Shown here in pieces: positions 155-14,119 of a DNA stretch of 63,935 bases. The stretch comes from an uncultured virus (IMG/VR IMGVR_UViG_3300048861_000257) (lineage: Duplodnaviria > Heunggongvirae > Uroviricota > Caudoviricetes > Herelleviridae), in IMG/VR virus record IMGVR_UViG_3300048861_000257; one strand, 5' to 3'. Both the position numbers and the translations under genes were made by a program. The notes under the pieces were generated by a model, which saw only the letters and a program-made list of their open reading frames with translations, made no database searches and was not told where the DNA came from. The stretch's first letter is position 1. Each line of letters opens with the position of its first letter.

Positions 155-751
155 TCATGCGGAATCCACCTGTCTGATCTCGGAGAAGTCGAAGGCCTCG
201 AGCTTCATGTCCTGGCGGTTGCGCAGGACGGTTCGTTCGTCGAGGTGAAGGGCGCGGCCGATGCGTTTGTCGCTCCAGCGGCGGGAGTGGAGACGCCGGA
301 TGGCTTCTTGGCGCTCGGCATGGGTGAGCTTGACCTTGTCGCCCCGCATCGCGAGGTGGACGGCGATCTCGTCGATGTATCCCTTGCCGTCGGCACGCTC
401 CTTGGCCACACCTCGGATGTTCGGACGTGCCTTGGGGTCGTCGATGTCGTCCCAGGCGAGCGGACTGACCCAATTGTTGGCCTTGGCCTTGTTCCGCGAA
501 CGTTCTCCCTCGGGGCCCTCGACTGGTTGTGTCCAGAGTTCGCTGTAGAGCTTGGCTACCGACCAATACGTCTGGATCGACACGCGATCATGCCGCGGGT
601 GAATCAGGACCGAGATGGTCGGCGGTGTCACGCCGAGGCGTGTTGCGAGAGCGGTCTGGGAGTGACCGATGGCCACCAGAGCTCGAAGCCGGCGAACGGT
701 GCCCGTGGCGTCGATGAGACCGGCTCTGGTTCTGGTGCTCGTCTTGCTCAC
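155..751 (-). CDS. HTH DNA-binding protein (N- and C-terminal HTH-like segments), phage-type
   Basis: RRLRALVAIGHSQTALATRLGVT and WSDKRIGRALHLDERTVLR helix-turn-helix patterns; upstream GGAAGGA RBS. Confidence 0.75.
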   Translation of the reverse strand: MSKTSTRTRAGLIDATGTVRRLRALVAIGHSQTALATRLGVTPPTISVLIHPRHDRVSIQTYWSVAKLYSELWTQPVEGPEGERSRNKAKANNWVSPLAWDDIDDPKARPNIRGVAKERADGKGYIDEIAVHLAMRGDKVKLTHAERQEAIRRLHSRRWSDKRIGRALHLDERTVLRNRQDMKLEAFDFSEIRQVDSA

Positions 752-779
752 GTTCCCGTCCTTCCTGTGTCGGAAGCGA

Positions 780-809
780 CGACGCCCCCTCCGTAGGAAG
801 GGGGCGTCG
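780..809. terminator. Intergenic hairpin
   Basis: CGACGCCCCCT (780-790) / AGGGGGCGTCG (799-809) perfect inverted repeat. Confidence 0.55.
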
Positions 810-835
810 GGCTTGGGAGAGAACCCCCTGCGGGG

Positions 836-1510
836 TCATGACTGGGCAGACAGCCCCAGTGCGTGCTGAACGTCCGCGAGGGCCGCGTCGCGGGCGGGCT
901 GCGCTTCGTAGAGGCTGCGGTAGGAGTCCAGTTCCGTAGCGACGAGCAGCAGTGCGCGGCTCAGCGCATCGACACGCTGGTCGGTGGTCTGTCCAGCGAG
1001 GGCGTCGATCTCCTTGGCGATGTCGACGCCGTTGAGCTTGACGTGCTCCTCCCACTTCCGGAACAGCCCGTGGGTGTTCGGATTGCGGCCGATGCTCATC
1101 GAGAGCGCCAGCGCGGCGTCTACATCCCGGATGCGGTCCTCGGGGACGACGCCCATCTTGCGACGGAGGCGGGATGCGTCGACGGAGTGGACCTGCTCGC
1201 ACAGTGCCATGGCGGTCCCGGTGCCTTCCGGTGCCGGGAGCTCCACATGGGTGGGGCCGCTGCGCTTGCGGGTGGCTGTGGAGAGGTAGACCACCTGGGC
1301 GAAGCCCGATCGCGCGTTGAGGACGTTGTTCGAGACGATCACGGCTGGCCGGTTGCTCCAGATCTCGTTTCCCACGGCGGGAGTGCTGGGATCGGCGAGG
1401 ACCATCCAGATGTCGCCGCGGCGGTATCTGAACTCGGGTCCGGCGCCGGCCGCCGCCGCGCCGCGCATACGGCCTGCGATGTTCGCCGGGGTCGGTGCTG
1501 TGTCCGTCAT
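836..1510 (-). CDS. mazF: PemK/MazF-family toxin with C-terminal helical extension
   Basis: RRGDIW..GNEIWSNRPAVIVSNN..YLST..ALCEQVHSVDASRL motifs. Confidence 0.85.
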   Translation of the reverse strand: MTDTAPTPANIAGRMRGAAAAGAGPEFRYRRGDIWMVLADPSTPAVGNEIWSNRPAVIVSNNVLNARSGFAQVVYLSTATRKRSGPTHVELPAPEGTGTAMALCEQVHSVDASRLRRKMGVVPEDRIRDVDAALALSMSIGRNPNTHGLFRKWEEHVKLNGVDIAKEIDALAGQTTDQRVDALSRALLLVATELDSYRSLYEAQPARDAALADVQHALGLSAQS

Positions 1511-2112
1511 GGTGCAATCACCCCTGTGGTATCCACCGGGGTCTGGTAGCTGTAGCTCTCGCCTTCGTCGTGGCGGTTGGCCTCGAGGATGAAGACGCGG
1601 CCGCGGCTGGGCGTCAGCGCGAATTCGATGTGCTTCTTGCAGGTCTCCTCATCAGCCGTGTCGAAGAATGCGGCGGTGTAGCCCTCGGAGAGGTTCGCGG
1701 CACGCTGCCGGAGCTCCTGGAGGCGTGCCTCGCGGGTGGGGTAGTGCTCGATGGCGGTCTTGCCGTCGCCATAGTCAGTGAAGGTCGTGTAGAGCACGGC
1801 GGGACCGGCATCCCGCTGGTACTCGCCGAGGTGGACATCCACGCCGTAACCCGCGTAGAGAGCGACGACCTGCCGGAGCGCTTCATCGGCGTTCGCGCCG
1901 CCGAACGGGGCGAGGATCTCGTCCACCTCTTCCGCGGAGACCTCGTCGTGGTTGACGAGCAGTAACTGCACGACAGCATCACGACGGGCCGACGGGTTCT
2001 CGAACTGCTCGTCGAGGACGACGGTTGCATCGTCCAAGACGACGGCGGTGTATGTGGGCACGAAGGCCCGGTCGGTGGAGGCCTCTTCAGGCTCCGCTGT
2101 TACGAGATACAC
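1507..2112 (-). CDS. Hypothetical protein, coupled to mazF-like gene
   Basis: Protein-like composition; 4-nt stop/start overlap at 1507-1510. Confidence 0.7.
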   Translation of the reverse strand: MYLVTAEPEEASTDRAFVPTYTAVVLDDATVVLDEQFENPSARRDAVVQLLLVNHDEVSAEEVDEILAPFGGANADEALRQVVALYAGYGVDVHLGEYQRDAGPAVLYTTFTDYGDGKTAIEHYPTREARLQELRQRAANLSEGYTAAFFDTADEETCKKHIEFALTPSRGRVFILEANRHDEGESYSYQTPVDTTGVIAP

Positions 2113-2175
2113 GGTGGCTCTCCTTGCAATTTCGGCGGGTCGCCTGGGCGGCCCGAGGTGTGAGCGGGACGGTCG

Positions 2176-2751
2176 TCAGAGCAGATGCTCGGTGGCGGCC
2201 GTCTCGATGAGGGTCCGGGCGATCGAGAGGACACCAGAGCGCCCGGTCAGGCTGCGGTCGTCGATCAGACGCTTGGGTTCTCTTCCGACGCCCCGATAGG
2301 TGCCGGTGGCTGTGTCGTGGATCTCGACCATGGTGTAGTCGTAGGCACCGTCGGCGTCTCGCAGGATGGAGACACTGAGGCCGGGGACGACACCGCTGGA
2401 GCGGAGTGCTTCGGCGACGTCGTGGACGAGCACGCTGAAGTCGCTGTGGTCGTAGATCCTGACACCCTCGTAGTCGTCGAGGGCGACCGACGACTCGCTG
2501 TTGGTGAGAGCGTGGGTGAGAGCGTCATCGGTGATGGCGTTCGTGTCGATCTCGAGGAGTTCCTCGCCCGAGATGACACGGGGGGGCTGCGACTGTCCGG
2601 CGTACCGGATGTTGAGCTTCAGGAGGGCTTCGGTGAGGTTCGGCGCTTTCATGTCGATGCACTCGACGCCGGCGAAGTCGGTCGAGCGGACCGATCGCGT
2701 CGCGGCGTCCGGGGAGACGCTCTTTTGCACGACGATGCGGTAGGTGGGCAT
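2176..2751 (-). CDS. Hypothetical protein
   Basis: Protein-like composition, GAGG RBS, co-oriented. Confidence 0.7.
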   Translation of the reverse strand: MPTYRIVVQKSVSPDAATRSVRSTDFAGVECIDMKAPNLTEALLKLNIRYAGQSQPPRVISGEELLEIDTNAITDDALTHALTNSESSVALDDYEGVRIYDHSDFSVLVHDVAEALRSSGVVPGLSVSILRDADGAYDYTMVEIHDTATGTYRGVGREPKRLIDDRSLTGRSGVLSIARTLIETAATEHLL

Positions 2752-2803
2752 GGTGCCTCAATTCCGGTTCGGGTGTCGCGCGGACACGTCTGGGGTTGGT
2801 GCA

Positions 2804-2844
2804 CGACAGGAAGGGGCGACCCGTGTGGATCGCCCCTTCTGTCG
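2804..2844. terminator. Hairpin after UvrD-like gene
   Basis: CGACAG-GAAGGGGCGA / TCGCCCCTTC-TGTCG inverted repeat. Confidence 0.55.
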
Positions 2845-2874
2845 ATGCGGGTGTTGCTGGACTTTTGGTCTCGG

Positions 2875-5800
2875 TCAGACCGTGGCCCCGACGAACGCCG
2901 AACCGTCGTCGACGGTGTCGTCGCTGCCGGTGTCGTCGCTGCTGGCGCTGCCGCCGAGCACCTCGGTGGCCTCGTCGGCGTCCAGGCGCGTGAGCGCGTC
3001 GGTGAAGCCGCTGAGCGCGGTGTCGAGGTCGTCGACCTGCTCCTCGGTGTCCTCACCGGCCGGTGTGGCCGCCATCAGGACGGCCAGGGCGGCCTCCACC
3101 TCGTCGTCCGACATGGTGTCGAGGTCGATGCCCTGCTGACGCAGCACGTTCAGCGCGTCGCGCTTCTCGAGCTGGGCCACCAGCATCTCGTAGTCCGCCT
3201 CGATGCGCGGGTTCTTCGCCGTGCCGTAGGAGAGGACGTACATGCTCTTCATCGCCCTGGTGAAGGCGACGTAGTACATGCGCTTGTTGTCCTCCGCCAT
3301 CTGTGGGTCGTACTTGTGCACGACCAGCACGTTGTCGAACTCGAGGCCCTTGGCGCCGTGGATGGTGCTGACGACCAGCTTCGCCTGCGCGTTGAGGTTC
3401 TTCTCCTTGCGCTCCCGGTTCTTCTGGTTCATCAGGGACTGCTTGATGCCGTTGTGACGGATCTCGTAGCCCAGCACGTTGTCCTGCAGTCGCTCGAAGA
3501 ACTCGTCCGCCGTGATCTGACCGGCCTGGTAGAGACCGAGCCAGCCGTTGATCTCGTTGGCACCCGCGATCCACCAGTCCGACGTCATCTTGGCGACGGC
3601 GCCGGCGGCAGCTGCGGCGTTCTTCGTGAGCTGATCCAGGTTGTCGTTGATGCCCTTGTGGATCGCGAAGGCAGCGTCCTTCGGGTCCAGCTGGCACACG
3701 TCGTTCCAGAACAGCTTGATGTACTGCGAGAACACCGTGGTGGGGTAGGTGCGGTCGCTGACGAGGTTGGCGACGTGCTCGCCCGGGAACAGCTCCTGGA
3801 GCTTCTTCTCCATGATGGAGACCTCGGCGCGCGAGTAGGCGAGGAACGCCACCTGCTCGCCCCGTCCCAGCCGCTCGGCGATCCATCGACGAGCGTCGAC
3901 CCCGATGAAGGAGCCGAGCTCCTCCCGGAACTTGGTGAGGTGCTGGAACAGCTTGTAGTTCACCGTCACCTTCTCCTGGAAGGAGGCGGCGGTGGGCACG
4001 GCGAGCGAGTTGGCCTGCAGCCGCAGCTGCGCCGCGGCGTTGGCCTCGATGTCAGCCAGGTGGACGTTCGCGAAATCCAGGATCTCCTGGTTACTCCGGT
4101 AGTTCGTCGTCAGCTGGTAGGTGGCGAAGACGCCGGACTCCTCGAGCGCGTTCAGCGCCTTGGGGTTCGACGCGCGGAACTCGTACAGCGTCTGCGAAGC
4201 GTCGCCGACGATGAACATGTTCTCGCGGTGCTTGGCAACGTACTTGAGCAGGTAGATGAACTCGAAGATCGAGTTGTCCTGCACCTCGTCGATGATGAGG
4301 TACTTCGACTGCACGTTCGCCGGCTCGACCATGCGGTCGATCTGCTGGTAGGCGATGACGATCTCCAGCTCGAGGCAGGTCTGGCCGATGCGGTCGAGCA
4401 TCTCCAGGACCTTGGCTTCGTACTTCTCGATGAACGCGTTGAGCAGCGTCGTCGCACCAGCGGTGAGCTTGTCGACGTCCATCATCACTCGACGGAACGC
4501 CCGTGCGACGTCGTCGCTCGGGTAGAAGATGTCGAGGCTGTTGAGGATCGTGTCGATCGACGACAGCTCGTGCTTCGGGTGGTTCAGCGAGTAGATGTCG
4601 TGGATCATCCGTGCGATGGTCATCGACCGCACACCCGGGTTCCGCTCCGTGATGTTGTCGGCGGCCGCGTTGGTGAAGGACAGCACCGCGATGTCGGACG
4701 CGTTCACGCCCTGCGCCTCGAGGTGCTGGATGCGCCCGAGGATCACGGTGGACTTGCCAGTGCCTGCACCCGCCTGCACGAGCGTCAGCGGCTCCGGGGT
4801 GGAGATCGCTGCGCGCTGCTGCGCCGAGAAGTGGGCCGGCATCGCCCAGGTGCTGTTGCCCGACGGCGGGGCGGAGAGCTGGCCCTTCATCGAGTTGAGG
4901 TGCTCCAGCGTGTGCGACATGAGCAGGTTCAGGTTCTGCTTGCTCAGGTCGTTTGCGACGTCGGGCGAGCACACGCCGTTGATGGTGGCGTGGATCGCAC
5001 GGTACGCCGCCAGCGAGACGTTGTAGGTCTCGAGGTAGCGCAGCTGCATCGCGAGGTGGTGCAGCGTCTGGTCGTCCGGTCGGCCGTTGGCGAACAGCTC
5101 CTGGATGTGGGTGGACAGCACGTCGGCGATACCGTCGCCGGCCCAGGCCTCCGCCAGGCGGCAGATTCGCTCGTGCACGTCGTAGTTCGACATCCACTCG
5201 GCGAGCTCGTCGACGTCCACGAAGACGCCTGCGCTTGCCTGGGCGCCGATGCGGGCCGTGGCGTCCTTAATGAACTCCTCGACGTCGTCGAGCGGCGCGT
5301 AGCTGTAGCGCATCATGGCGAACTCGTGGGTCGCGTCGAACGGCTGGCCGGCGCGCGGCGCCCACGGCGGCGAGGAGACAAGGCGCACTCGCTCGCTGGT
5401 GGATCCTTTGGCCACGACGAACAGGTCCATCCGGTAGAGGATGCTGAGGTCCTTGGAGATCTTGTCGCCGCTCTCGTCCTTCTGGAGCACGATCCCCTGG
5501 GGGGTGAGGTCCAGGAAGACGTCGAAGTCGTACTTCGTCGCATTGGCGGTGATCTCCAGCCGGTCGTTGGCGAACGGCACCGGGTAGGTGAGGCCGCGGG
5601 CCGCGTTGTGCTCGACCGAGTACTGGGCCAGCAGACCCATCGGGATGGTGAAGGTGGTGACGTTACTGCCGGAGCTCTTGCCCTTGGCGAGCACCGCCTT
5701 CGTGGACATGGTGGCCGAGCTGGAGCCCAGCGGGTATCGCCCGGGACGCACGGTCTGGTTCAGCAGGCCCACGTTGTTCCGGCCGTTGCCGGTGAGTTCG

Positions 5801-5883
5801 CTGCTGAAGTACTTCGGGTTGAGCGCCTTGGCGGCCGTGGGAGCCGAGGAAAGCGCGGTGAGGTCATCGAGCTGGATTGGCAT
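2875..5883 (-). CDS. UvrD/REP-like superfamily 1 helicase with long N-terminal extension (~1002 aa; start re-called at MPIQLDD)
   Basis: AGAGTGKST Walker A, LSFTNAAA, IIDEVQD, VGDASQTLYEFR, NYRSNQEI, STIHGAKGLEFD, YVAFTRA. Confidence 0.92.
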   Translation of the reverse strand: MPIQLDDLTALSSAPTAAKALNPKYFSSELTGNGRNNVGLLNQTVRPGRYPLGSSSATMSTKAVLAKGKSSGSNVTTFTIPMGLLAQYSVEHNAARGLTYPVPFANDRLEITANATKYDFDVFLDLTPQGIVLQKDESGDKISKDLSILYRMDLFVVAKGSTSERVRLVSSPPWAPRAGQPFDATHEFAMMRYSYAPLDDVEEFIKDATARIGAQASAGVFVDVDELAEWMSNYDVHERICRLAEAWAGDGIADVLSTHIQELFANGRPDDQTLHHLAMQLRYLETYNVSLAAYRAIHATINGVCSPDVANDLSKQNLNLLMSHTLEHLNSMKGQLSAPPSGNSTWAMPAHFSAQQRAAISTPEPLTLVQAGAGTGKSTVILGRIQHLEAQGVNASDIAVLSFTNAAADNITERNPGVRSMTIARMIHDIYSLNHPKHELSSIDTILNSLDIFYPSDDVARAFRRVMMDVDKLTAGATTLLNAFIEKYEAKVLEMLDRIGQTCLELEIVIAYQQIDRMVEPANVQSKYLIIDEVQDNSIFEFIYLLKYVAKHRENMFIVGDASQTLYEFRASNPKALNALEESGVFATYQLTTNYRSNQEILDFANVHLADIEANAAAQLRLQANSLAVPTAASFQEKVTVNYKLFQHLTKFREELGSFIGVDARRWIAERLGRGEQVAFLAYSRAEVSIMEKKLQELFPGEHVANLVSDRTYPTTVFSQYIKLFWNDVCQLDPKDAAFAIHKGINDNLDQLTKNAAAAAGAVAKMTSDWWIAGANEINGWLGLYQAGQITADEFFERLQDNVLGYEIRHNGIKQSLMNQKNRERKEKNLNAQAKLVVSTIHGAKGLEFDNVLVVHKYDPQMAEDNKRMYYVAFTRAMKSMYVLSYGTAKNPRIEADYEMLVAQLEKRDALNVLRQQGIDLDTMSDDEVEAALAVLMAATPAGEDTEEQVDDLDTALSGFTDALTRLDADEATEVLGGSASSDDTGSDDTVDDGSAFVGATV

Positions 5884-5971
5884 CGTGTGGCTTCTTCCTA
5901 GATTTTCGCCCGAGGGCGGGTGGCTTTGCGGGTGTGGGTGCGCGGGCGGCGAGCTGATGGCCTGCGGGTAG

Positions 5972-6310
5972 TCACTGCTCAGGGCAGTCGGGGCAGGGTG
6001 CAGCGAGCCCGCAGCCGTTGCAGAGCTTCGGCAGGACGGCGTCGACCATGAAGTAGCCGAACGGCATGCCCTGCTGGAGCAGGTCGGCGCACGCTTGGCA
6101 GAGGGGGACATTGGACTGCCAGCGGCCACGCGGGTGCTCGGCGGTGCCATGCACCGGGCTGGTGATGGTCGCGATGACGGCGGCGAAGGGCAGGTCGTCT
6201 GGGTGGTTGGAGTCCAGCGCGCACATGCGGATACGGACCCGTTCCTCGTTGTGCTTCTCTCGACCCCAGGACGAGAGGGTGGAGCCGGACGGATACACGG
6301 TGTCGGCCAT
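5972..6310 (-). CDS. Small Cys-rich putative zinc-binding protein (start MADTVYP)
   Basis: CQAC, CNGC, CPDC motifs; GAGGAGG RBS. Confidence 0.65.
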   Translation of the reverse strand: MADTVYPSGSTLSSWGREKHNEERVRIRMCALDSNHPDDLPFAAVIATITSPVHGTAEHPRGRWQSNVPLCQACADLLQQGMPFGYFMVDAVLPKLCNGCGLAAPCPDCPEQ

Positions 6311-6339
6311 TGGGCCTCCTCTCGTTGGAAGTGGGCGCA

Positions 6340-6373
6340 CGAAGGGGCGAGGGGATTGACCCTCGCCCCTTCG
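6340..6373. terminator. Intergenic hairpin
   Basis: CGAAGGGGCGAGGG / CCCTCGCCCCTTCG perfect 14-bp stem. Confidence 0.6.
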
Positions 6374-6383
6374 GTCGTGGCGG

Positions 6384-8321
6384 CTACTCGTCGAGAACGA
6401 GTTCCAGCTCGTCCTCCTCGTCGACCACCCCGAGTGCGGCGGGCGCCGGGGGGAAGCGCACGGCGATGACCGCGTCCTCGATGAGCCGTCGAGCGGCCTG
6501 CTCTGCCGGGCGAGCACCCTGGTCGGGCAGGAAGGTGTCCTGCACCGTCTGGGCGAGCACCCCGGGGTCGATGGGCACCGGGATGGCGGCCGCGGTGACC
6601 GGGTCGGACTCGACGATGCGGTCGCGCTCTCGCTCGTAGCTGGCCACGAGGATGTCCTCGTAGGTTTCGCGCGAGAGTGGGGCGAACGCGATCAGCTTGG
6701 AGTAGCGGCCGAGGAACTCTGCATCGAAGTCGTCCTTCAGTGCCCTGGCGATCTCCTGACGGCTGAGCATTGAGGCCTGGTCGTCCAGGACGAACCCGAC
6801 CTTCTTCTTGTTCAGCGAGTCTCGGCCCGCGTTCGTGGTCGCGATGATGATCGTCTTCGTGAAGTCGATCACCTTGCCGTTGGCCATCCGCATCCAGCCC
6901 TCGTCGAGGGCTGTCAGGAACAGCCGGTGGATCGTGCGGTCGGCCTTCTCGATCTCGTCCAGCAGGATCACCCGGTACGGGTTCGACTCGAGGGTGTCGA
7001 ACGGCAGCTCCTTGTTGGAGTCGCTGCCGATGTAGCCGGGTCCGGCGCCGATCAGGCGCGAGACGTCGTGCTGGTTGCTGTACTCGCCCATGTTGAGCAT
7101 GATCGGCGGCTGGCTGGTCAGCTCCTGGGCGATGATCTTCGACACTTCGGTCTTGCCGACACCGGAGGGGCCGGCGAACATCCACGCAAGCGGCTTCTTA
7201 CGGGGGAATGCGCCGAGATCGTCACGACGCAGCGCGTCGATCAGGTCGTCGATGATCTCCTCCTGTCCCTTGATGCGGCCGAGCTGCTCGAGCACTCGCG
7301 CCTCGTTGAAGGGCTCCTTGGTGGCGAGGCCTGTCATGAGACGAACAGCGACCGAGCGCAGCTTCGACTCGCTCAGCGGTATGGCGGTCAGGCTCTGCAG
7401 GGCATTGGCGACCGCGGTGTTCTGCGCCGCTGTCGCTTGGGCCAGTGCCGTGCTGTGTGCGACGACGGTCTCGGCCATGGCGCGGTCGAGCAGCGTGAGG
7501 GCGTTGTCCGGCCGGTGCGAGGTTGCCCGCGAGTTCTCGTCGGCGATGACGACGAGCTTGGTGAGCACGTCGTCGGAAACCGTGACCTTCTGCTTGTAGT
7601 GCGCGAGGTACGACGGACGAGCCGAGAAAAGGACCTGGAGAGCCTGCTCCCTGGTGAGCTCGTCGACGATCAGACGGGTGAAGCGGCGCTGGAACGCCGG
7701 GTCATCGTCGAACGACTTCGACTCGTTCATCGTGGTCGATCCAATGACCCGCAGGTCGCCACGGGCGAGTGCGGGCTTCAGGATCTGAGACACCTTCTTG
7801 TAGACCGGGTCGCGGTTGTCCATGAGCTGGTGGATCTCGTCGATGAAGAGGATCGCGTCCTTCTTCTTGTCCGTGGCGAAGTCGATCAGGCCGGCCAGGC
7901 GCTCCTCGAGCTGCCCGACGACGCCGGCGCCGGCGACGATGTTGCTCAGCGGCAGCTCGTAGATCGTGGACTTCGCCAGGCGCGCGGGGATCAGCGGGCT
8001 CTTGATGGCGATGAGGCGCGCGATCTCTTCGGCGATGCGGGTCTTGCCGACGCCGGCCGGGCCGACGAGGAGCGCGTTCGGCTTGTTCTTGCCGATGAGG
8101 ACCGAGATGGTCTGGGCGATGAGCGCATCGCGGAAGAGAGCCGGGTCGGCCTTCTCGAAGCGCTCGTTGTAGTTGATGAGCATGTCCTCGATCCCGGACA
8201 GGCTGCCGGTGATGTTCGACATGGGCGGGAGGCCCGGGATGATGGGTCCTCCGCCGTTGCCGCCGCCTCCACCGTTGCCGGTGTCGTCGTCGTTCGGGTT
8301 CGTGTAGTCGGTGAGTCCCAT
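6384..8321 (-). CDS. ClpA/ClpB-type two-NBD AAA+ ATPase lacking the Clp N-terminal domain
   Basis: KNKPNALLVGPAGVGKT, LFIDEIH, LKPALARG, FQRRF; second NBD FAGPSGVGKTE, RLIGAGPGYIG, LLDEIEKA. Confidence 0.92.
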   Translation of the reverse strand: MGLTDYTNPNDDDTGNGGGGGNGGGPIIPGLPPMSNITGSLSGIEDMLINYNERFEKADPALFRDALIAQTISVLIGKNKPNALLVGPAGVGKTRIAEEIARLIAIKSPLIPARLAKSTIYELPLSNIVAGAGVVGQLEERLAGLIDFATDKKKDAILFIDEIHQLMDNRDPVYKKVSQILKPALARGDLRVIGSTTMNESKSFDDDPAFQRRFTRLIVDELTREQALQVLFSARPSYLAHYKQKVTVSDDVLTKLVVIADENSRATSHRPDNALTLLDRAMAETVVAHSTALAQATAAQNTAVANALQSLTAIPLSESKLRSVAVRLMTGLATKEPFNEARVLEQLGRIKGQEEIIDDLIDALRRDDLGAFPRKKPLAWMFAGPSGVGKTEVSKIIAQELTSQPPIMLNMGEYSNQHDVSRLIGAGPGYIGSDSNKELPFDTLESNPYRVILLDEIEKADRTIHRLFLTALDEGWMRMANGKVIDFTKTIIIATTNAGRDSLNKKKVGFVLDDQASMLSRQEIARALKDDFDAEFLGRYSKLIAFAPLSRETYEDILVASYERERDRIVESDPVTAAAIPVPIDPGVLAQTVQDTFLPDQGARPAEQAARRLIEDAVIAVRFPPAPAALGVVDEEDELELVLDE

Positions 8322-8351
8322 GGCGGGTGATTTCCTCTCGTGAGTGAGACG

Positions 8352-8417
8352 GCGAACGGCCCCGGCTTGCGGCTCTTCCCTCGTGTGAGGTGGGAGCGCG
8401 CGGCCGGGGCCGTTCGC
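8352..8417. terminator. Long intergenic hairpin
   Basis: GCGAACGGCCCCGGC ... GCCGGGGCCGTTCGC inverted repeat. Confidence 0.55.
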
Positions 8418-8445
8418 TAGTCGTCGCCTATGCAGGCGTGCCGGG

Positions 8446-10134
8446 TCAGGCGACCAGGCCGATGAGCTTCTGCGCGATGGCAGGGTCGATGTGGCGCATC
8501 CTCTTCGCGAACTCCTGAGCGGAGCCGACGATCGTGTCCCAGTCCATGCTCGAGCAGGGCGCGTAGTACAGGTTTGCCGGGTGCTGGTCTCGCTGGCTCG
8601 GCGGCCACCACTCGAAGTCAGTGACGACGAGCGAGAGCCGGCGCTTCCGCTTCTCTGAGGCGTTGATGTAGTCCCAGATCTGCTTGTAGTCGGTGCCGCC
8701 GTTGACCTTCGGGATGCGCCGGAACTCCTCCCAGATCCGCGCCACGGACTTGTCCTTGGTGCGGAGGAGGCGCTCCTGCGACATGACGTGGGAGAACGAG
8801 TTGAAGTAGAGGTCGACGTTCATCTTCTTGGCCAGCTTGATCAGCATCATGACCGCCTGCTGGTAGTGCGCCTCTGAGATCGACCCCGAGGTGTCGATGT
8901 AGACGTGCAGATCCGGCAGGTAGTGCGTCGATGTGATGCGACCGGGCCGGTTGTAGTCCATCGGGTCGCGGCGGTTGGCCTTGGCGAAGGTGGTCTTCGT
9001 CTTCTTCAAGATGTTCTGCGAGCGGGCGACTTCCTTCAAGCGCTTGAGCGCGCGGATGAGGCCCTTCTCGATCTCCACCCTGGTCGGCGGCTGCTTCTTG
9101 AAGGTGATCTTCGCGGAGCGACCGAGCTGCGCGGTCTTGTTGCTCTGAGCGTTCGCAGCCTGCGCCGCGGCCTTCGCCATCGCGCGGGGGAGGGCGGTGA
9201 GCTTGCTCAGCGCTTTGTTCGAGATCACCTTCACAGGCGACTTGATCGACGCGTTGATCAGCTGCCACTCGTTGTCGACCTTCTTCGGCGTCGACCGTGC
9301 GTGCGCTTCGACGTTGACGAGGATGATCGTGCGCGGCAAGTAGAGCTCCGACACGACGAACGGCAGGGTGCCCATCACCGGGGTGGCACCCCAGGTCGAG
9401 GCGTTCTGCAGCTGGTACTGCATGAGCATGTGCACGATGACCCTGGCGAACGAATACTCCTCGTTGGCGTCCGAGTCGTCCTTGCGGAGCACGTAGCCCT
9501 CGACCAGCCCCTTGAGGTTGGTCTGGGCGAACTTGCTGAGCAGGTTCGTCGTGTCGCCGGGCAGCACCGCGGCGAGGGTCGCCGTCTGCTGAACGAGCCA
9601 GGCCTTGAAGTCGTCGAAGTCGGTCTCGCTCTGGAACCAGAAGCCGAGCGCCTCGGGCGAGTACGCGTAGGCGACGCTGGCGAAGAACTCACCGTCGTCC
9701 TTAGCGTTGCCTCCGATGAGCTTCTTGGCCGACGGGATGACGTCGTGCATCGCCGTGTAGAGCGTCTTGGGACCGGGGTGCGGCAGCCGGTTGGCGTGGG
9801 CAGCCTGGACGGCGAAGAGCTCGTTGACGAGCAGCGGGGTGGTCTGGTCGTAGTTGACGAGGCCCTGCTGGAGCAGTGACTTCATCTCCTGTTCAGCGGT
9901 CGGGTTGACGTTCGGGCCGACGGCGCTCATGAGGATGCCGAGCACGTCGTCCTTGTTGTACGAGATGCCCTTCTGGTTGGTCACGGAGACCGAACCACCC
10001 TTTGCCATGGGCTTGAAGAGCGGCTTGACGATCGACTTGCGGATCGCGGGCACCGGGTCGTAGCCCCCGTTGATGGGGAGGGTGTGCACCGGGCTGAGGA
10101 TGGCGGGCTTCTGCCCGCTGAGCGTGAGAGACAC
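8446..10134 (-). CDS. vWA-domain protein (MoxR partner)
   Basis: C-terminal MIDAS: YIDTSGSIS, GGTD, VVTD; directly downstream of AAA ATPase. Confidence 0.85.
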   Translation of the reverse strand: MSLTLSGQKPAILSPVHTLPINGGYDPVPAIRKSIVKPLFKPMAKGGSVSVTNQKGISYNKDDVLGILMSAVGPNVNPTAEQEMKSLLQQGLVNYDQTTPLLVNELFAVQAAHANRLPHPGPKTLYTAMHDVIPSAKKLIGGNAKDDGEFFASVAYAYSPEALGFWFQSETDFDDFKAWLVQQTATLAAVLPGDTTNLLSKFAQTNLKGLVEGYVLRKDDSDANEEYSFARVIVHMLMQYQLQNASTWGATPVMGTLPFVVSELYLPRTIILVNVEAHARSTPKKVDNEWQLINASIKSPVKVISNKALSKLTALPRAMAKAAAQAANAQSNKTAQLGRSAKITFKKQPPTRVEIEKGLIRALKRLKEVARSQNILKKTKTTFAKANRRDPMDYNRPGRITSTHYLPDLHVYIDTSGSISEAHYQQAVMMLIKLAKKMNVDLYFNSFSHVMSQERLLRTKDKSVARIWEEFRRIPKVNGGTDYKQIWDYINASEKRKRRLSLVVTDFEWWPPSQRDQHPANLYYAPCSSMDWDTIVGSAQEFAKRMRHIDPAIAQKLIGLVA

Positions 10135-10242
10135 GGCTCCTCCGTTTCAGATGGGGGTGTCGAGGCGGGAATCGACGATGAGGACGATGAAGGGGCCCCA
10201 CCCTGCTGGGCTGCAGAGCGGGACCCCTTGATCAGTGGTTGG

Positions 10243-11481
10243 TCAGGCCGCGAAGGCGCTGAGCATGAGCTTGGTGGACTCGCCCACCGGGGTGCCGGTG
10301 CGGAAGAGTGCCTCCACGTTGCCCTCGTCGAGCATCGACTGGGCGGCAAGCTGGACCAGGAGGCGGTTGTGGTCGCCTTCGATGGTCGTCTGCTGCGCCA
10401 GCTGCTCCACGAGGATCCGGTTGTCCGCGCGCTCGAAGAGCGCGTAGAGCAGCGAGCCGGACTTCTCGTGATCGGTCAGGCCATTGATCAGCGTCTCCAG
10501 GTCGGAGACGGACTTGGCCTGCTTCAGGCTGCCGAAGCAGTTGGGCTTCGGTGCCGTCAGCGACTGCACCTGGGCGGCCGCGCCGGAGTTGATGCCGGTG
10601 GCGATCTCCGAGACGAGGTGGGTGGCGAACTCGGTGTTCCCGATGTGAGCCTCGATCACCTCGTTGAGCAGGGTGGTCTCGCGACCCTCGCTCATGACCT
10701 GCGTCTGCAGGAACTCGGTGAGCCTGGTCTGGTCGACGGCGTTGAGCCAGCGGCTGATCGCGTGGATCGTGCGGGGCGTGGTGAGCTGGAGCATCTCCTC
10801 GCCGGCGTCCAGGAGATCCGCCATGGTCGCCGTGGTGTCGTCATCGTCATCGTCCTTGCCGTCGACCAGGATCGCGCTGGAGACGCCCTTCTGGAAGATC
10901 AGGTGCGGGAGACGCACGAGGACGGACTTGACGTACGGGTTAAGTTCCGCCCCGAGGATGCCGATCAGCGTCTGGGCCTCCGGCTCGACGTGGTAGATCG
11001 AGAATCGGGAGATCGACGCCTCATCGAGCATCGTGACGTTGCCCTTGTCGTTGCCGGCGACCATGATGCGCAGGTTCTTCGGAAGCTGGATCGAGCCGAT
11101 GCTGCGCAGCGTGGGGAGCGAAAGCGCGGCCGAGGTCACGTCGGAGGTGGAGCGGTTGATCTCGTCGAGGAACAGGATGGGCCACTCGCGCGGGTTGTCC
11201 AAGGCGTAGTCGATCGCGTCCTGGATGACCTGGTGCGGGTAGAACTCCTGCTTGTACTTGGTCACGCCGTTGTGCTCGTAGGGCACCAGGCGGGCACCGG
11301 TGAGGTCGGCCTTGTCCGCGAGCTGGTTGCAAGCGAGGACGAAGGCCTTGGTGTCCATGTCCTCGGCGAGCTTCTCGACGAACGAGGACTTGCCGATGCC
11401 GGGCTCGCCCATGAGGGCGGGGACGGCGCCGACTTCGAGGTCGAGCTTGACGATCTCGGTGAGGGTGTCGTTGAACTTCAT
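10243..11481 (-). CDS. MoxR/dynein-like AAA+ ATPase
   Basis: GEPGIGKS, DLTG, LFLDEINRS, AGN, SISRF, TPR sensor. Confidence 0.9.
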   Translation of the reverse strand: MKFNDTLTEIVKLDLEVGAVPALMGEPGIGKSSFVEKLAEDMDTKAFVLACNQLADKADLTGARLVPYEHNGVTKYKQEFYPHQVIQDAIDYALDNPREWPILFLDEINRSTSDVTSAALSLPTLRSIGSIQLPKNLRIMVAGNDKGNVTMLDEASISRFSIYHVEPEAQTLIGILGAELNPYVKSVLVRLPHLIFQKGVSSAILVDGKDDDDDDTTATMADLLDAGEEMLQLTTPRTIHAISRWLNAVDQTRLTEFLQTQVMSEGRETTLLNEVIEAHIGNTEFATHLVSEIATGINSGAAAQVQSLTAPKPNCFGSLKQAKSVSDLETLINGLTDHEKSGSLLYALFERADNRILVEQLAQQTTIEGDHNRLLVQLAAQSMLDEGNVEALFRTGTPVGESTKLMLSAFAA

Positions 11482-11545
11482 GGCGAGATTTCCTTGTCTG
11501 TTCGGCCGGTTGACCGGTGGATGTGGCGGGCTGGCGCAGGCGCGC

Positions 11546-11932
11546 TCAGTCCGAGAGGTCTGGGAGCTCTGCGATGACGAGATCGGAGTCGCCGTGTGCG
11601 GCGAGCGATCGAGCCTGCAGGGCTGCGGTGTTGTCGCCGAGCGGGTCGAGCACGATGACGATCAGGTCTGGTGCCGCGCTCTCGGCAGTCACGAGGTCGA
11701 CGGCGTGGCCGTTCTGGGAGCCGAATACGGCGACGGGATCGTCACCTGCGCTGGTCACGGTTTCAGCCGTGAGCAACCGGTCGCCCTCTCGGACGATCTC
11801 GGTGAGCACCGTGGCGATCTGAGCCTGGTGGTAGGGCCGGAGAGCATCGGGCACGCACACGTAGACCGTGCGTGGGCCGCTGCGGAGCGATGCAGGCCCG
11901 AGCCAAGCGGCCATGACTGTTCTGCTGGTCAC
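11546..11932 (-). CDS. Hypothetical protein
   Basis: GGAGG RBS before GTG; plausible composition. Confidence 0.55.
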   Translation of the reverse strand: MTSRTVMAAWLGPASLRSGPRTVYVCVPDALRPYHQAQIATVLTEIVREGDRLLTAETVTSAGDDPVAVFGSQNGHAVDLVTAESAAPDLIVIVLDPLGDNTAALQARSLAAHGDSDLVIAELPDLSD

Positions 11933-11956
11933 AAGCCCTCCAGGGGGTCGAAGGTG

Positions 11957-12100
11957 ACCGGGGGGACTACGTGGGTCCCCCCGGGGAAGGCAACGCCTTC
12001 CGTCAGCGACGTGCCGTGAGCAGGGCCCTGCGCCCCTGCTCCGGTCGTCGCAACCTCACCCGGCTGCGCATTGCGCAGCGACTCTGGCCACAGGCCAGAG
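11957..12100. repeat. Chain of five consecutive short hairpins
   Basis: CCGGGGGGAC/GTCCCCCCGG, GGAAGGC/GCCTTCC, GAGCAGGG/CCCTGCTC, GCTGCGCA/TGCGCAGC, CTCTGGCC/GGCCAGAG. Confidence 0.7.
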
Positions 12101-12114
12101 ATAGGCGTGATTGG

Positions 12115-12375
12115 TCACGCCTGTTCGGACACCGTGTTCTCTACGGTGTCCGCTTCACCCGGTCCCGATTCGGAATCGATCGCGGAGACGGCGTCTCTCA
12201 GACGGCCGTACGAGATGTAGCCGTCGATCGTGACGACGCCGTCGGCATCCAGCTGTCCCGTCTCCCACCGATAGATGGTTCCGCCGCGAGGGCCGTCCCA
12301 GTCGGTTTTGACGATCGCCTTGCCGCGGTACTCGTAGCGACCGGCCGCGATCCTCCTCAGGTCCGTGCTCATCAC
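12115..12375 (-). CDS. Hypothetical protein
   Basis: Overlap-coupled to upstream gene. Confidence 0.6.
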   Translation of the reverse strand: MMSTDLRRIAAGRYEYRGKAIVKTDWDGPRGGTIYRWETGQLDADGVVTIDGYISYGRLRDAVSAIDSESGPGEADTVENTVSEQA

Positions 12376-12839
12376 GAGCCCTCGGCGCCATCCCGTTCCG
12401 CGCGAGCGATTCCGTCGTGATCGGAGCGTTTCATCTCGATCACGGCGAAGGTGGTGTGCACCCGATCAGGGCGCCACTGCTCGTACGGAACCGATTCGAA
12501 TGGCTCCGGAACCCGGACGTCGGCCTTCTCGAAGCCGTTCGCGCGGAGCACGGCGGCCTCTCGGTTCGACGTCTCGGCGGCCAGGATCTTCGCGTCCCGC
12601 TCGCGCTTGCGCCGATCCATCTCGACGTCGTAGAGCGCGCGGTTCTGAGCGTTGAGCTGCTCAGAGCGGATCGTGGCCGATTCTGCGTTGGCGAACCAGC
12701 CTTCATCCTCCTCGATCGAGTGATCCACCGCCGGCCGCCCGTCGGCGTCCGTGTAGTGGTAGGAGCTCTCGATCACGTGGATGACGGTGTCGGCATCGCC
12801 TGTCGGATTCGGATCGGTCCTCTGCTCGAGGTTCGTCAC
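12372..12839 (-). CDS. Hypothetical protein (start re-called at GTG, MTNLEQR)
   Basis: AAGGAGGA RBS; protein-like composition from this point. Confidence 0.7.
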   Translation of the reverse strand: MTNLEQRTDPNPTGDADTVIHVIESSYHYTDADGRPAVDHSIEEDEGWFANAESATIRSEQLNAQNRALYDVEMDRRKRERDAKILAAETSNREAAVLRANGFEKADVRVPEPFESVPYEQWRPDRVHTTFAVIEMKRSDHDGIARAERDGAEGS

Positions 12840-12870
12840 GGAATCCTCCTTCCTGTTGCCTGCGGCTCGT

Positions 12871-12951
12871 CTACTGGCAGGAGTCGCACTGCAACAGGTC
12901 CATCGGATCGACGGGCACTGCGTACTCGCCGACCTGTTCCTTGTCAGCCAT
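12871..12951 (-). CDS. 26-aa micro-protein MADKEQVGEYAVPVDPMDLLQCDSCQ with terminal CxxC
   Basis: Translated by hand; GAGGAGG RBS just upstream of ATG; below ORF-track cutoff. Confidence 0.7.
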   Translation of the reverse strand: MADKEQVGEYAVPVDPMDLLQCDSCQ

Positions 12952-13113
12952 CGGGCCTCCTCTTGTCTCGTGCCGCGGTGTGCGCGGCGTCTGGTGGTGG
13001 TGCCGATCGCGTGATCGGCCGCGGCGCGCGGTTGGGCTGCGCGCTGCGCTTGCGGCTGCCGCAGGGCCGCATGGCGGCCCCTTGCCTTCGTGATGGTGGT
13101 CACGGTGGCGTGG

Positions 13114-14076: not shown

Positions 14077-14119
14077 GGGGGTCCTCATTTCGGGGCTCCG
14101 GGGTGGTGGTGGACGTGCG

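Follow-up and report, generated by a model that had tools for sequence, protein, structure and literature searches.

Replication proteins of plasmids and phages, among them P1 RepA, RK2 TrfA, lambda O and MuA, are substrates that ClpA and ClpX remodel or degrade, and both the transfer and the replication of ICEBs1 require a PcrA-type helicase. MoxR-vWA pairs with a third conserved component, which can be an FtsH-type protein with two AAA+ domains, are described in the account of PMC7159879 as conflict systems and not as replication factors. Pairs of MoxR/CbbQ-type AAA+ and vWA proteins also occur in pCAR1, R478, Rts1, SXT and R391 (as reported in PMC2642839) and in jumbo phages (as reported in PMC7824862), with no Clp or UvrD partners in these accounts. 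Within the Clp proteins, 602VGF604 of ClpE has been reported to be a ClpP-interaction motif, the mutation of which abolishes ClpP binding (PMC13125188). The locus considered here brings together a MoxR-type ATPase (A), a vWA protein (B), a Clp-like unfoldase (C) and a UvrD-like motor (E), and functional studies of this module are apparently lacking.

The locus occupies 2875-11481 of the window, that is, the whole 63,935-nucleotide stretch of DNA that was analysed, and it consists, as a preliminary description had it, of five co-oriented genes that include three ATPases (Table 1). GC3 is 0.91-0.95 for A, B and C measured over the whole ORFs, and by sliding window in the E frame it is 0.88-0.98 across 2900-5900 and about 0.8 in the D region. 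A mechanically listed ORF at 2875-7185 was rejected as the E gene, homology and frame analysis placing the start at 5883.

Table 1. Genes of the locus and its flanks, with positions in the window.
Gene	Assignment	Position	Strand	Length	Basis or remark
g14180	syntenic upstream gene	14180-15196	-	338 aa	
g13114	syntenic upstream gene	13114-14061	-	~315 aa	start inferred from homologues
A	AAA_5/MoxR-clade ATPase	10243-11481	-	412 aa	Pfam AAA_5
B	metal-binding vWA protein	8446-10134	-	562 aa	structure model and MIDAS residues
C	ClpA-architecture double-ring AAA+	6384-8321	-	645 aa	Pfam AAA, AAA_lid_9 and AAA_2
D	Cys-rich protein, putative zinc binder	5972-6310	-	112 aa	three CxxC pairs
E	SF1A UvrD/Rep/HelD-like	2875-5883	-	1002 aa	UvrD-helicase, AAA_19 and UvrD_C over 344-942
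g1507		1507-2112	-		4-nt overlap with the MazF/PemK-like gene
MazF/PemK-like	toxin-like	836-1510	-	224 aa	C-terminal extension; Pfam PemK_toxin 1.5e-22

The order and orientation of A, B, C and E are kept in every testable locus. Of 27 loci, all 22 that are informative for the first pair have A before B, all 26 for the second have C after B and all 20 for the third have E after C, and two more low-GC IMG/VR loci add to this co-conservation. The median spacer is 103 bp from A to B and 159 bp from B to C, and these junctions are free of insertions in the 17-18 loci measured, except for 1605 bp between A and B in L005 and 745 bp between B and C in L036. Insertions pile up upstream of A, where they reach 4 kb, while the C-to-E spacers extend to 2 kb and contain unrelated, variable small ORFs. 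Co-conservation had been anticipated for the cluster as a whole, and it holds for A, B, C and E and fails for D, the supposed 'Zn-finger' member of the unit: a homologue was found in only one of 20 loci (L004, which retains all 7 Cys), and D gave no match in Pfam, PHROGs, PADLOC or NCBIfam. A metagenome contig about 93% alike stays collinear with the window through E, C, B and A but is diverged or replaced across 5936-6377. D belongs to a variable spacer and is accessory, outside the conserved module.

Comparison with other elements also clarified the nature of the carrier. An island within a chromosome was rejected as a reading of the window, which is collinear with a circular, 203-kb conjugative plasmid of Leifsonia. 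Only 32 of the 172 ORFs of that plasmid have a homologue in Gordonia pGKT2, and the core of about 32 genes so defined includes g14180, g13114, A, B, C and E together with a D5 primase, a polymerase-like protein of 1131 aa, SNF2, RecJ, RarA, SSB and transfer genes; no RepA initiator is present among the shared ORFs. Plasmids of different bacterial orders carry the module in their core, at 30-50% identity and amid replication-type genes. A MobL relaxase and the module share a record in eight of nine cases, low-GC ones included. The carrier is a family of MobL-type conjugative megaplasmids or ICEs which can also integrate into the chromosome, and the actinobacterial setting first proposed is right in that Actinobacteria carry the family and too narrow in that low-GC hosts do so too. 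A chromosomal copy in Arthrobacter (L005) matches A and B in part only, and both genes may be broken there. A root RNA library contains contigs of a 90-95% alike relative that span portions of A, B and E, which is no more than a weak hint of expression.

C matches the NCBIfam ClpA model in a single stretch, 176-714 of 734, and for this reason can be said to be without both the N-domain and the M-domain; its alignments in the PDB are to ClpE, ClpC, ClpB and ClpA. The earlier suggestion that a short Gly/Pro-rich stretch replaces the Clp N-domain is upheld, residues 1-45 being made up of the conserved peptide MGLxNFT, a run of acidic residues and a Gly/Pro linker. The score of 324.7 is far under the cut-off of 993, and, with every equivalog cut-off missed by a wide margin, there is no basis in these sequence comparisons for transferring function by orthology to any protein of the module. 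All 21 family members have a Walker A/B pair in each ring, the GY[IVA]G loop of D2 and the GARP of sensor 2, from which C is judged to be built to translocate; the D1 pore-loop Tyr is retained in just two of the 21. Inside the D2 P-loop, V508-G509-F510 aligns on V602-G603-F604 of ClpE, and x-G-F is invariant (21/21) though the surrounding loop varies in length and sequence. C therefore looks able to plug into the host ClpP protease, with a docking strength that is uncertain because the D1 Tyr is mostly absent and T or A sometimes precedes GF. The module had been described as a remodelling machine coupled to a helicase, which suits the replication-type neighbours, whereas the VGF loop suggests degradation through host ClpP more than remodelling alone. 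No ClpP gene is present on the element contigs of the three genomes checked (G001, G002 and G004); in four host genomes (G001-G004) the ClpP genes are chromosomal, and G003, which carries the element in integrated form, has them about 4.2 Mb from the module. A second Clp-like gene, which adjoins the coupling-protein gene, has neither the pore loop, nor x-G-F, nor the N-terminal peptide, and these features are thus specific to C.

A scores 40.8 bits against Pfam AAA_5 (cut-off 22; 2.8e-10) and 2.2e-27 against the PHROGs family phrog_1297 'ATPase', and the top PDB matches of its family profile are midasin AAA modules (1e-11), NorQ, CbbQ and McrB. Its AAA+ core (about 1-290), with a conserved poly-Asp insertion at about 209-215, is followed by about 120 additional C-terminal residues, and 18 sequences share its Walker A (GEPGIGKS) and Walker B (LDExNR) motifs. 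B has at least 538 homologues and, among the matches listed, every named source is an actinomycetote (Actinomycetota). Against the 'VWA-like' Pfam family DUF2201 it gave only a weak score of 17.9, below the 26.4 cut-off. The predicted structure (pLDDT 81.5) starts with a confident alpha/beta domain (about 1-300), continues through a linker of low confidence (about 310-400) and ends in a domain whose vWA fold the model confirms, with Z 9.1 to the CD11b I-domain and 8.1 to NorD. Foldseek and VIA-align matched residues 365-562 only, to vWA/I-domains, NorD, BchD and the Rea1 MIDAS domain, and no fold was identified for the N-domain. The MIDAS of B is complete, D414-x-S416-x-S418, T481 and D506 being invariant in 26 sequences.

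E matches Pfam UvrD-helicase at 3.4e-24, and its model (pLDDT 76) aligns in VIA-align with Rep (Z 17.4), Bacillus subtilis HelD (16.0), Mtb UvrD1 (15.2) and PcrA (15.1). The helicase was correctly said to have an uncharacterised N-terminus, the length of which is about 345 aa and not about 400, the Pfam domains beginning at 344. This region is disordered at 1-26, beta-rich at about 60-195 and helical at about 197-331, and no fold or family was recognised in it, the structural alignments being confined to residues 306-903. Across 17 sequences the helicase motifs do not vary, while conservation of the N-terminus is weak; the C-terminus is a variable acidic tail.

Some flanking genes travel with the module, g14180 and g13114 upstream and, often, the MazF-like gene downstream, the last being the only neighbour named by Pfam. 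The g14180 product, encoded upstream of the module in 15 of 27 loci, has a conserved N-domain of about 190 aa and an Ala/Pro-rich tail, and gave neither a Pfam nor a PDB-sequence match. Invariant motifs in g13114 (D-x-E, S-x-S-G-x-G-x-H and L-x-x-H) resemble those of archaeo-eukaryotic primases (prim-pol). The four best PDB matches of its profile are 'Primase' chains (6a9w, 6k9a, 7rr3 and 7rr4) with E only about 0.07-0.1, Pfam was empty and an hhalign comparison with LigD prim-pol fell short of significance, so that a primase-like identity is a lead only. Of the 14 loci in which 3.8 kb or more lies beyond E, 10 have a MazF-like gene there and four, both well-annotated plasmids among them, do not; in the low-GC loci L031 and L033 it follows E immediately.

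The explanation that we prefer, tentatively and with somewhat less than even confidence, is that A, B, C and E form a conserved functional unit in the MobL megaplasmid core which unfolds or degrades proteins via host ClpP, and in this way processes protein-DNA complexes in replication, transfer or establishment. C would be a ClpA-type hexameric unfoldase no longer equipped with an N-domain of its own for binding adaptors and substrates, threading substrates mainly via the D2 ring while its VGF loops dock the host ClpP1P2 peptidase; the plasmid would thereby supply its own specificity factor to the host protease. B may be the adaptor that C lacks, using its MIDAS and large N-terminal domain to capture the target or the acidic N-terminal tail of C, and A could form a MoxR-type ring for the ATP-driven loading or release of B, by analogy with MoxR-vWA pairs elsewhere. 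E would translocate on plasmid DNA (or RNA polymerase), exposing or stripping protein roadblocks. Counting against this explanation are the loss of the D1 pore-loop Tyr from 19 of the 21 C sequences, the long C-to-E spacers, the N-domains of B and E, for which no fold was identified, and the MazF-like gene, which would suit a conflict system equally well.

Such a conflict system, borne by the plasmid, is the main rival and in our view rather unlikely. It could act in counter-defence, C and host ClpP destroying defence or silencing proteins of the recipient after entry, or in defence and exclusion against phages and rival elements, with the fast-evolving E N-terminus as sensor, A-B as a regulated switch, C as proteolytic trigger and the MazF-like RNase as effector. 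The poor conservation of the N-terminal ~340 aa of E next to an invariant core is as expected of an arms-race interface, and the frequent MazF-like gene fits an effector, although it is missing from the plasmids noted above. The ternary systems of PMC7159879 are themselves described as conflict systems, and vWA proteins there carry N-terminal domains, with ClpN repeats in rare variants; jumbo phages encode N-domain-less ClpA-like proteins, ClpP and ClpS, with a role in host takeover or assembly proposed in PMC7824862. There are partial PADLOC matches to the candidate defence proteins PDC-M37B and DolB (C D2) and to GajB and DRT helicases (E), but these are generic AAA_2 and UvrD domains, A and B matched no PADLOC model, and no GajA partner or known effector was found among the nine proteins scanned. 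Moreover, genes for defence or anti-defence tend to be variable cargo, whereas the module sits in the ~32-gene core among replication-type genes.

It is less probable still that these are independent backbone genes that are merely adjacent, E serving rolling-circle transfer replication as the plasmid's own helicase of PcrA/UvrD type, A-B being a MoxR-vWA pair of generic assembly chaperones as in other conjugative elements, and C a stand-alone chaperone or disaggregase. Synteny covers the whole 30-kb backbone, well past the four genes, so that adjacency by itself is no proof of joint function and may in part be a matter of gene order passed on by descent. Variable ORFs interrupt the stretch from C to E, L048 has an A-like and B-like pair only, pairs without Clp or UvrD partners occur in the plasmids, ICEs and jumbo phages cited above, and no MoxR, vWA or helicase gene neighbours the ClpA-like genes of two jumbo phages. 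Against independence stand the insertion-free A-B-C junctions and the persistence of the four genes in low-GC elements with otherwise different neighbours, as in L033 (31% GC), where they lie beside NrdD/NrdG without both upstream genes; the N-domain loss and conserved docking-type N-terminal peptide likewise suggest that C depends on a partner. A role in conjugation, in which C would unfold the relaxase or other type IV secretion substrates, A-B would act as loaders and E would unwind the transferred strand, is highly improbable: type IV substrates need unfolding, MobL relaxases are not known to have a helicase domain and a MobL relaxase usually shares the record, but the relaxase and coupling-protein genes are 20-40 kb off on the opposite strand, the coupling protein already has its own, different Clp-like neighbour, and the conserved VGF loop points to ClpP and not to a secretion channel.

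Among known systems, C is most like ClpA, ClpC and ClpE, the class I Hsp100 partners of ClpP, in its two AAA+ rings, intact Walker motifs, D2 GYVG pore loop and sensor-2 GARP; it shares the hydrophobic-Gly-Phe tripeptide of the D2 P-loop with ClpE and a short D1-D2 connection with ClpA. It differs from them in having the MGLxNFT peptide, acidic run and linker in place of Clp_N, no M-domain, mostly no D1 Tyr, scores far under every equivalog cut-off, and a plasmid location without its own ClpP. Klebsiella phage K64-1 gp078, which aligns with about 90% of C at some 31% identity, also has two rings and no N-domain, although its tripeptide is IGV where C has x-G-F and its D1 loop KYRG is retained, and the jumbo phage genes are set among virion or DnaJ genes. 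E resembles PcrA/UvrD/Rep and HelD in conserving all SF1 motifs, and HelD and helicase IV in having an N-terminal extension, but is set apart by the nature of that extension, its acidic tail and unmet equivalog cut-offs. In A-B, as in NorQ-NorD, CbbQ-CbbO, RavA-ViaA, BchI-BchD and Rea1/midasin, an AAA_5-clade ATPase lies directly upstream of a complete-MIDAS vWA protein, the modelled domain of which aligns with those of NorD, BchD and Rea1; unlike those pairs, B has its ~300-aa N-domain, A its C-terminal region and poly-Asp insertion, and the genes alongside encode a Clp-type unfoldase and a helicase, with no client enzyme nearby. The Gram-negative sets (pCAR1 ORF101/103, R478, Rts1, SXT and R391) are alike by description in being backbone-conserved MoxR-type ATPase and vWA genes with no function assigned in PMC2642839, which reports no Clp-like or UvrD-like partners for them. 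The FtsH-type ternary conflict systems (Kaur et al. 2020, PMC7159879) share the MoxR-vWA core, a third protein with two AAA+ domains, an N-terminal domain on the vWA protein and occurrence in Actinobacteria. As they are described there, the FtsH-type protein has an inactive first domain, whereas the third component here is a Clp/Hsp100 protein with both rings active, and the present module, lacking a caspase, Ubl or NEFF effector, is linked instead to a UvrD-like helicase in the core of a conjugative plasmid.

The genes A (an AAA_5/MoxR ATPase), B (a vWA protein), C (a ClpA-type double AAA+ protein) and E (a UvrD/Rep/HelD-like SF1A motor) form a conserved module that lies in the core of a family of conjugative megaplasmids. 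The G+C content of the window is 65%, and both of its strands contain long ORFs. It is because of the third-position G+C, 0.91-0.95 in A, B and C and 0.88-0.98 in sliding windows over E, that the minus strand is taken to hold the real genes of 2875-11481. The preliminary description of five co-oriented genes in this region was accurate, all five being present on the minus strand. A mechanical ORF of 2875-7185 was rejected as a gene, the start of E being at 5883. A promoter and terminator scan of 500-16000 gave results at chance level. RNA-library contigs of a relative span parts of A, B and E, which is no proof of transcription, and the sequencing runs with a small share represent relatives only.

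Coordinates of the genes discussed (window positions unless a plasmid is named; G001:C6 is the circular Leifsonia plasmid, L009 and L015 are loci within it)
Feature	Coordinates	Strand	Description
A	10243-11481	-	412 aa, Pfam AAA_5
B	8446-10134	-	562 aa, sub-threshold Pfam DUF2201 'VWA-like' match only
C	6384-8321	-	645 aa, AAA, AAA_lid_9 and AAA_2
D	5972-6310	-	112 aa, seven Cys, three CxxC pairs
E	2875-5883	-	1002 aa, UvrD-helicase, AAA_19 and UvrD_C over residues 344-942
MazF/PemK-like gene	836-1510 (836-2112 with upstream gene)	-	downstream of E
g13114	13114-14061	-	upstream of A
g14180	14180-15196		upstream of A
1131-aa protein	22509-25904	-	adjoins the D5/DUF5906 gene
D5/DUF5906 protein	26921-28693	-	primase-helicase
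Tyrosine recombinase	33383-34552 (33383-35635 with adjoining gene)	-	integrase; adjoining gene of 344 aa
DUF7768 and DUF6283 proteins	47319-48886	-	found together
Surface protein	56540-61384	+	1614 aa, antigen I/II C2 and C-terminal domains
DUF3375 and DUF4194 genes	G001:C6 42077-44352 (L009 2077-4352)	-	Leifsonia plasmid
Second Clp-like protein	G001:C6 167330-169105 (L015 7330-9105)	-	591 aa, double AAA+
Second Clp-like protein	pGKT2 65351-67117		Gordonia plasmid

B is the most specific marker of the module. It has at least 538 homologues, with Actinomycetota for every source name among the matches listed. It is matched in only three of 72,556 plasmids (from Streptomyces, Gordonia (pGKT2) and Rhodococcus fascians), in none of a sample of 400 other genomes of the class, and nowhere among phages. 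A single-protein search of genome contigs returned only four loci; the locus set was obtained by mapping the window proteins with tblastn onto 27 loci (two plasmid, four genome and 21 metagenome). When only loci with a contig reaching far enough are counted, B lies directly downstream of A in 22 of 22, C downstream of B in 26 of 26 and E downstream of C in 20 of 20, always in the same orientation. Further A-B-C-E sets occur on three IMG/VR contigs. The hit coordinates of one of these three (L045) are those of another locus (L021), and it was left out as an independent locus since the two are probably one sequence. Between A and B the median spacer is 103 bp (n=18), and between B and C it is 159 bp (n=17). 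The distance from C to E ranges from 15 to 2031 bp, and that from g13114 to A reaches up to 4 kb.

D stands between C and E in one of 20 loci, and its sole homologue keeps all seven Cys, the three CxxC pairs included, as in a putative zinc-finger or zinc-ribbon protein; it has no family match in four libraries. In a 23-kb metagenome contig that is about 93% alike and collinear over E, C, B and A, it is exactly the D region that has diverged or been replaced. Upstream, g14180 and g13114 are present at 15 loci, and of the 14 loci with enough downstream sequence, 10 have a MazF/PemK-like gene after E. Five loci have a low G+C content (31-44%), and the range of the module is therefore wider than the high-GC Actinobacteria. 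At the most GC-poor of them (L033, 31%), g14180 and g13114 are missing despite 8.6 kb of upstream sequence and an endonuclease and NrdD/NrdG stand upstream; A-B-C-E and the MazF-like gene are still kept. In an Arthrobacter chromosomal copy (L005) A and B give only partial matches, which may reflect broken genes or else frameshift errors in the record.

The carrier is a conjugative megaplasmid: positions 2-61440 of the window, itself part of a 189 kb contig, are collinear at 70-90% nucleotide identity with a 203,568-bp Leifsonia contig. The last 95 nt of the Leifsonia contig repeat its first 95 nt, and it is therefore circular. This plasmid encodes ParA, a RepA_C initiator, a MobL relaxase and a coupling protein of the VirD4/TraG type, along with a topoisomerase, a cell-wall hydrolase, a Tad-type pilus, LigD, SSB and DUF3375/DUF4194 proteins. 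We take the last two to be JetA and JetB of Wadjet, in which case a plasmid carrying an anti-plasmid defence system would be notable. A tyrosine recombinase, followed by RecJ- and RarA-like genes, was the source of an initial idea that the window is a chromosomal island bounded by this integrase. That reading was rejected, as the collinearity with a circular plasmid extends over the entire window and the integrase belongs to the backbone, being common to pGKT2; the 344-aa gene beside it also has a homologue in the pGKT2 backbone. A phage origin was likewise rejected: there was no phage DNA match and no phage match to B, no structural PHROGs were found among the 37 window proteins scanned, and no HK97 capsid was found in the 'viral' records carrying the module.

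The Gordonia plasmid pGKT2, which is associated with RDX degradation, comes from a host of a different order, and only 32 of the 172 ORFs of the Leifsonia plasmid have homologues on it (E<=1e-8). The core common to the two includes ParA, an ATP-grasp protein, SSB, RarA, a RecJ/DHH protein, the integrase, a D5-type primase-helicase, the 1131-aa protein, an SNF2 helicase, g14180, g13114, A, B, C, E and a transfer block made up of MobL, the coupling protein, the topoisomerase, hydrolases, a second Clp-like ATPase and an 1857-aa protein. The RepA_C initiator is outside this set. MobL and the module occur on one record in eight of the nine records examined, the exception being a 35-kb fragment; they are found together on the Leifsonia plasmid, pGKT2 and the Streptomyces plasmid, in three further genomes and on two large 'viral' contigs. 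One of the three genomes is a 4.7-Mb chromosome and the copy there is therefore integrated, so the family may alternate between plasmid and integrated states. The two contigs (L046, an IMG/VR record of 251,549 bp with terminal repeats, and L047, of 86,624 bp) are filed as viral, yet both carry a MobL relaxase; L047 also has a coupling protein, and no HK97 capsid match was found in either. It is probable that both are conjugative megaplasmids wrongly filed as viruses. These findings define a deep core gene set of a poorly known family of 85-640-kb MobL conjugative plasmids and ICEs of soil Actinobacteria, some members of which are catalogued as viruses in IMG/VR, and pGKT2 offers a genetically accessible member for experiments.

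The protein A is an AAA_5 ATPase (Pfam, 40.8 bits against a cut-off of 22) with Walker A and B conserved in 18 sequences and a conserved poly-Asp insertion; its score against AAA_3, the MoxR-proper family, is 17.8 bits and below the cut-off of 27. The closest solved structures to its family profile are midasin, NorQ, CbbQ and McrB, and a phmmer search of the PDB with the sequence of A gave no matches. The model of B (pLDDT 81.5) consists of a confident alpha/beta N-domain (about residues 1-300) and a vWA domain at the C-terminus, joined by a linker of low prediction quality. Residues of about 405-561 in this model resemble the CD11b I-domain (Z 9.1, rmsd 3.6, 137 aligned) and NorD (Z 8.1), and the domain also matches BchD and the Rea1-MIDAS; the top Foldseek matches to the model are all vWA, the matches of the whole model covering the vWA domain only. 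The MIDAS residues D414, S416, S418, T481 and D506 are invariant in 26 sequences. B scores 17.9 bits against DUF2201, below the gathering score of 26.4, and Pfam gave no match to the DUF2201_N metallopeptidase domain. No usable match was found in the ESM Atlas for residues 1-380 of B or 1-345 of E.

C carries Walker A and Walker B in both AAA+ rings (D1 and D2) in 21 of 21 family members, with Pfam AAA and AAA_2 above their cut-offs. It aligns in one continuous stretch with the NCBIfam ClpA model and with E. coli ClpA, whereas its alignment to ClpB, ClpV and ClpC is broken in two at the M-domains, where about 58 query residues span about 100 or more target residues; C has no coiled-coil M-domain between D1 and D2. 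Pfam gave no match to Clp_N, and the match to the ClpA model begins at model position 176. It follows from this pattern that C has the ClpA architecture minus the N-domain, and it is below every NCBIfam equivalog cut-off (ClpA, ClpB, ClpV, ClpG and ClpK), the best being ClpA at 324.7 bits against 993. Residues 1-45 are a short peptide and a low-complexity linker, comprising a conserved MGL(S/T/N)NFT peptide, an acidic run and a variable Gly/Pro stretch, and from its sequence this N-terminus resembles a docking motif on a tether. All 21 members have the D2 pore loop GY[IVA]G and the sensor-2 GARP, and only two of the 21 have the D1 pore-loop tyrosine. The G-F of an x-G-F tripeptide (x = V, I, T, L, M or A) is likewise invariant (21/21), in a loop that varies in length and sequence. 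In C itself this is V508-G509-F510, which a phmmer alignment places on V602-G603-F604 of ClpE. According to the available text of PMC13125188, the VGF in the AAA2 P-loop of ClpE is the ClpP-interaction motif, which ClpX and ClpC have in common with it, and a 602GGR604 mutant is deficient in ClpP interaction. C therefore carries the ClpP-docking tripeptide [LIVM]-G-[FL] of class I Hsp100s, docking itself being predicted. In four host genomes the ClpP genes are chromosomal; none is on the element contigs of G001, G002 and G004, and in G003, where the element is integrated, they are about 4.2 Mb away from the module. The second Clp-like protein of the plasmids adjoins the type IV coupling protein and is conserved at 56% identity. 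It has neither the D2 pore loop nor the x-G-F nor the N-terminal peptide and is therefore unlikely to be a threading unfoldase.

E scores well above the Pfam cut-offs for UvrD-helicase (86.4 bits against 23) and UvrD_C (60.4 against 25.6), and its SF1 helicase motifs are invariant in 15-17 sequences. Its model (pLDDT 76) matches Rep (Z 17.4), B. subtilis HelD (6wvk_H, Z 16.0), M. tuberculosis UvrD1 (Z 15.2) and PcrA (Z 15.1) over residues 306-903. E has a core similar to that of the RNA-polymerase recycling motors HelD and HelR, whose N-terminal arm reaches into the secondary channel of the polymerase (Z 15.0 and 28% identity to the HelD C-terminal domain), and the NCBIfam HelD score is 61.9 bits against 419; among the Rep, PcrA, UvrD, RecB and AddA equivalogs the best score is 85 bits for a cut-off of 951. 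E also matches the PADLOC GajB models (8.3e-39); its partner GajA, an OLD-family nuclease, was not found among the nine neighbouring proteins scanned with PADLOC, and the locus does not score as Gabija. The unexplained N-terminus ascribed to E is present, although at about 345 residues it is shorter than the 400 or so first claimed, and it is weakly conserved except for its first residues.

The invariants D-x-E, S-x-S-G-x-G-x-H and L-x-x-H of g13114 are archaeo-eukaryotic-primase-like, and the top four PDB matches to its profile are chains of phage primase-polymerases, all weak (E about 0.07-0.1). Against the LigD prim-pol, hhalign gave a probability of 0.4% with the SGxGxH motif alone aligned, and Pfam scans of all g13114 and g14180 family members at E up to 1 gave nothing relevant. 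We regard a putative AEP primase or prim-pol function of g13114 as a lead. The g14180 profile had no match in the PDB, and an SSB-like reading of this gene was dropped as the Pfam and PDB profile searches lent it no support. The MazF/PemK-like protein has a C-terminal extension of about 90 aa, and there is a 4-nt overlap between its gene and the stop of the gene upstream, which encodes 201 aa. Low-GC relatives have a MazF-like gene directly after the helicase, and no antitoxin-like gene precedes it. The 1131-aa protein has a single weak PHROG match ('DNA polymerase', residues 680-827) and no match in the PDB by phmmer. It adjoins the D5 primase-helicase in a pair conserved as far as pGKT2, with a second copy of each on the Leifsonia plasmid, and the two may be a plasmid-encoded replisome core. 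The large surface protein is kept in the Leifsonia relative, where there is also a sortase; it may be a mating-aggregation adhesin, for which we take those of Gram-positive conjugative plasmids as the comparison. The DUF7768 and DUF6283 genes may be further backbone genes that are conserved, a DUF6283-family protein being annotated on pGKT2.

The reading favoured here, with chances that we put somewhat short of even, is that the plasmid encodes in A-B-C-E a unit for unfolding and degrading proteins, which acts on plasmid protein-DNA complexes. The domains, motifs, conservation and gene context are observed, whereas all contacts among the four proteins, the use of ClpP, the choice of substrates and the life-cycle stage are inferred. 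C would be the unfoldase and would hand substrates to host ClpP via its VGF loops. B could be the substrate receptor or adaptor that stands in for the missing N-domain of C, via its MIDAS site and its own N-domain; MIDAS sites in other systems bind an acidic side chain. By analogy with NorQ-NorD or CbbQ-CbbO, A may load or reset B, and E would supply translocation on DNA (or RNA polymerase). The deep-core context comprises a primase-helicase, a polymerase-like protein, SNF2, RecJ, RarA, SSB, a possible prim-pol and transfer genes, with no shared initiator, and because of it a role in the DNA transactions of the element is favoured over one as cargo. There are precedents: ClpA and ClpX act on P1 RepA, RK2 TrfA, lambda O and MuA, which they activate or destroy, and ICEBs1 requires PcrA. 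A more elaborate form of the proposal, which is unlikely to hold in full, is that an 'orphan' plasmid Clp unfoldase hijacks the ClpP of the recipient or host, its lost N-domain being supplied in trans by B as loaded by A, and with E strips and degrades proteins on plasmid DNA, and that without this MobL megaplasmids could not become established in new hosts, which range from high-GC Actinobacteria to bacteria of low GC. Candidate targets would then include stalled RNA polymerase, Lsr2 and other xenogeneic silencers, and the relaxase in its covalently bound state.

That the module is instead a conflict system seems to us rather unlikely. MoxR-vWA ternary systems have been interpreted in this way, one of them with a second double-AAA+ protein (of the FtsH type) and with rare ClpN-bearing vWA proteins, as far as the accessible part of PMC7159879 goes. 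The N-terminus of E evolves fast and a MazF-like RNase gene often comes after E, both of which would suit such a function. However, the module is core backbone, neither A nor B was matched by PADLOC, and four of 14 loci are without the MazF-like gene; caspase, TIR or other effector domains were not found in B or the neighbouring genes. We consider it quite unlikely that A, B, C and E are independent backbone genes, a view for which it may be said that MoxR-vWA pairs occur alone in pCAR1, R478, Rts1, SXT and R391 (PMC2642839, in the portion available) and in jumbo phages (PMC7824862, likewise). A role as a type IV secretion helper is the least probable of these readings.

If the unfolding and degradation unit proposed here is real, a mobile element redirects a host protease via its own unfoldase and a MoxR-vWA adaptor pair. 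This would also give a concrete and testable role to MoxR-vWA pairs, to which, going by the available text of PMC2642839, no function has been assigned in conjugative-element backbones since at least 2009. Should the module prove to be a conflict system, a Clp-type branch would be added to the MoxR-vWA ternary systems. No description of the MoxR-vWA-Clp-UvrD module was found in the full-text literature, subscription-only papers and supplements being outside the search. Every component belongs to an established family, and the novelty lies in the conserved combination, in a ClpP-type unfoldase that is N-domain-less and bears a tethered peptide, and in the location in a megaplasmid core. Relatives of C in jumbo phages (about 31% identity) include some that are N-domain-less; in the two phages checked they have no MoxR, vWA or helicase neighbour. 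In the MoxR-vWA ternary conflict systems, as the accessible part of PMC7159879 presents them, the third component is VMAP, iSTAND, FtsH or a beta-propeller, whereas here it is Clp-type, with the core pair shared between them.
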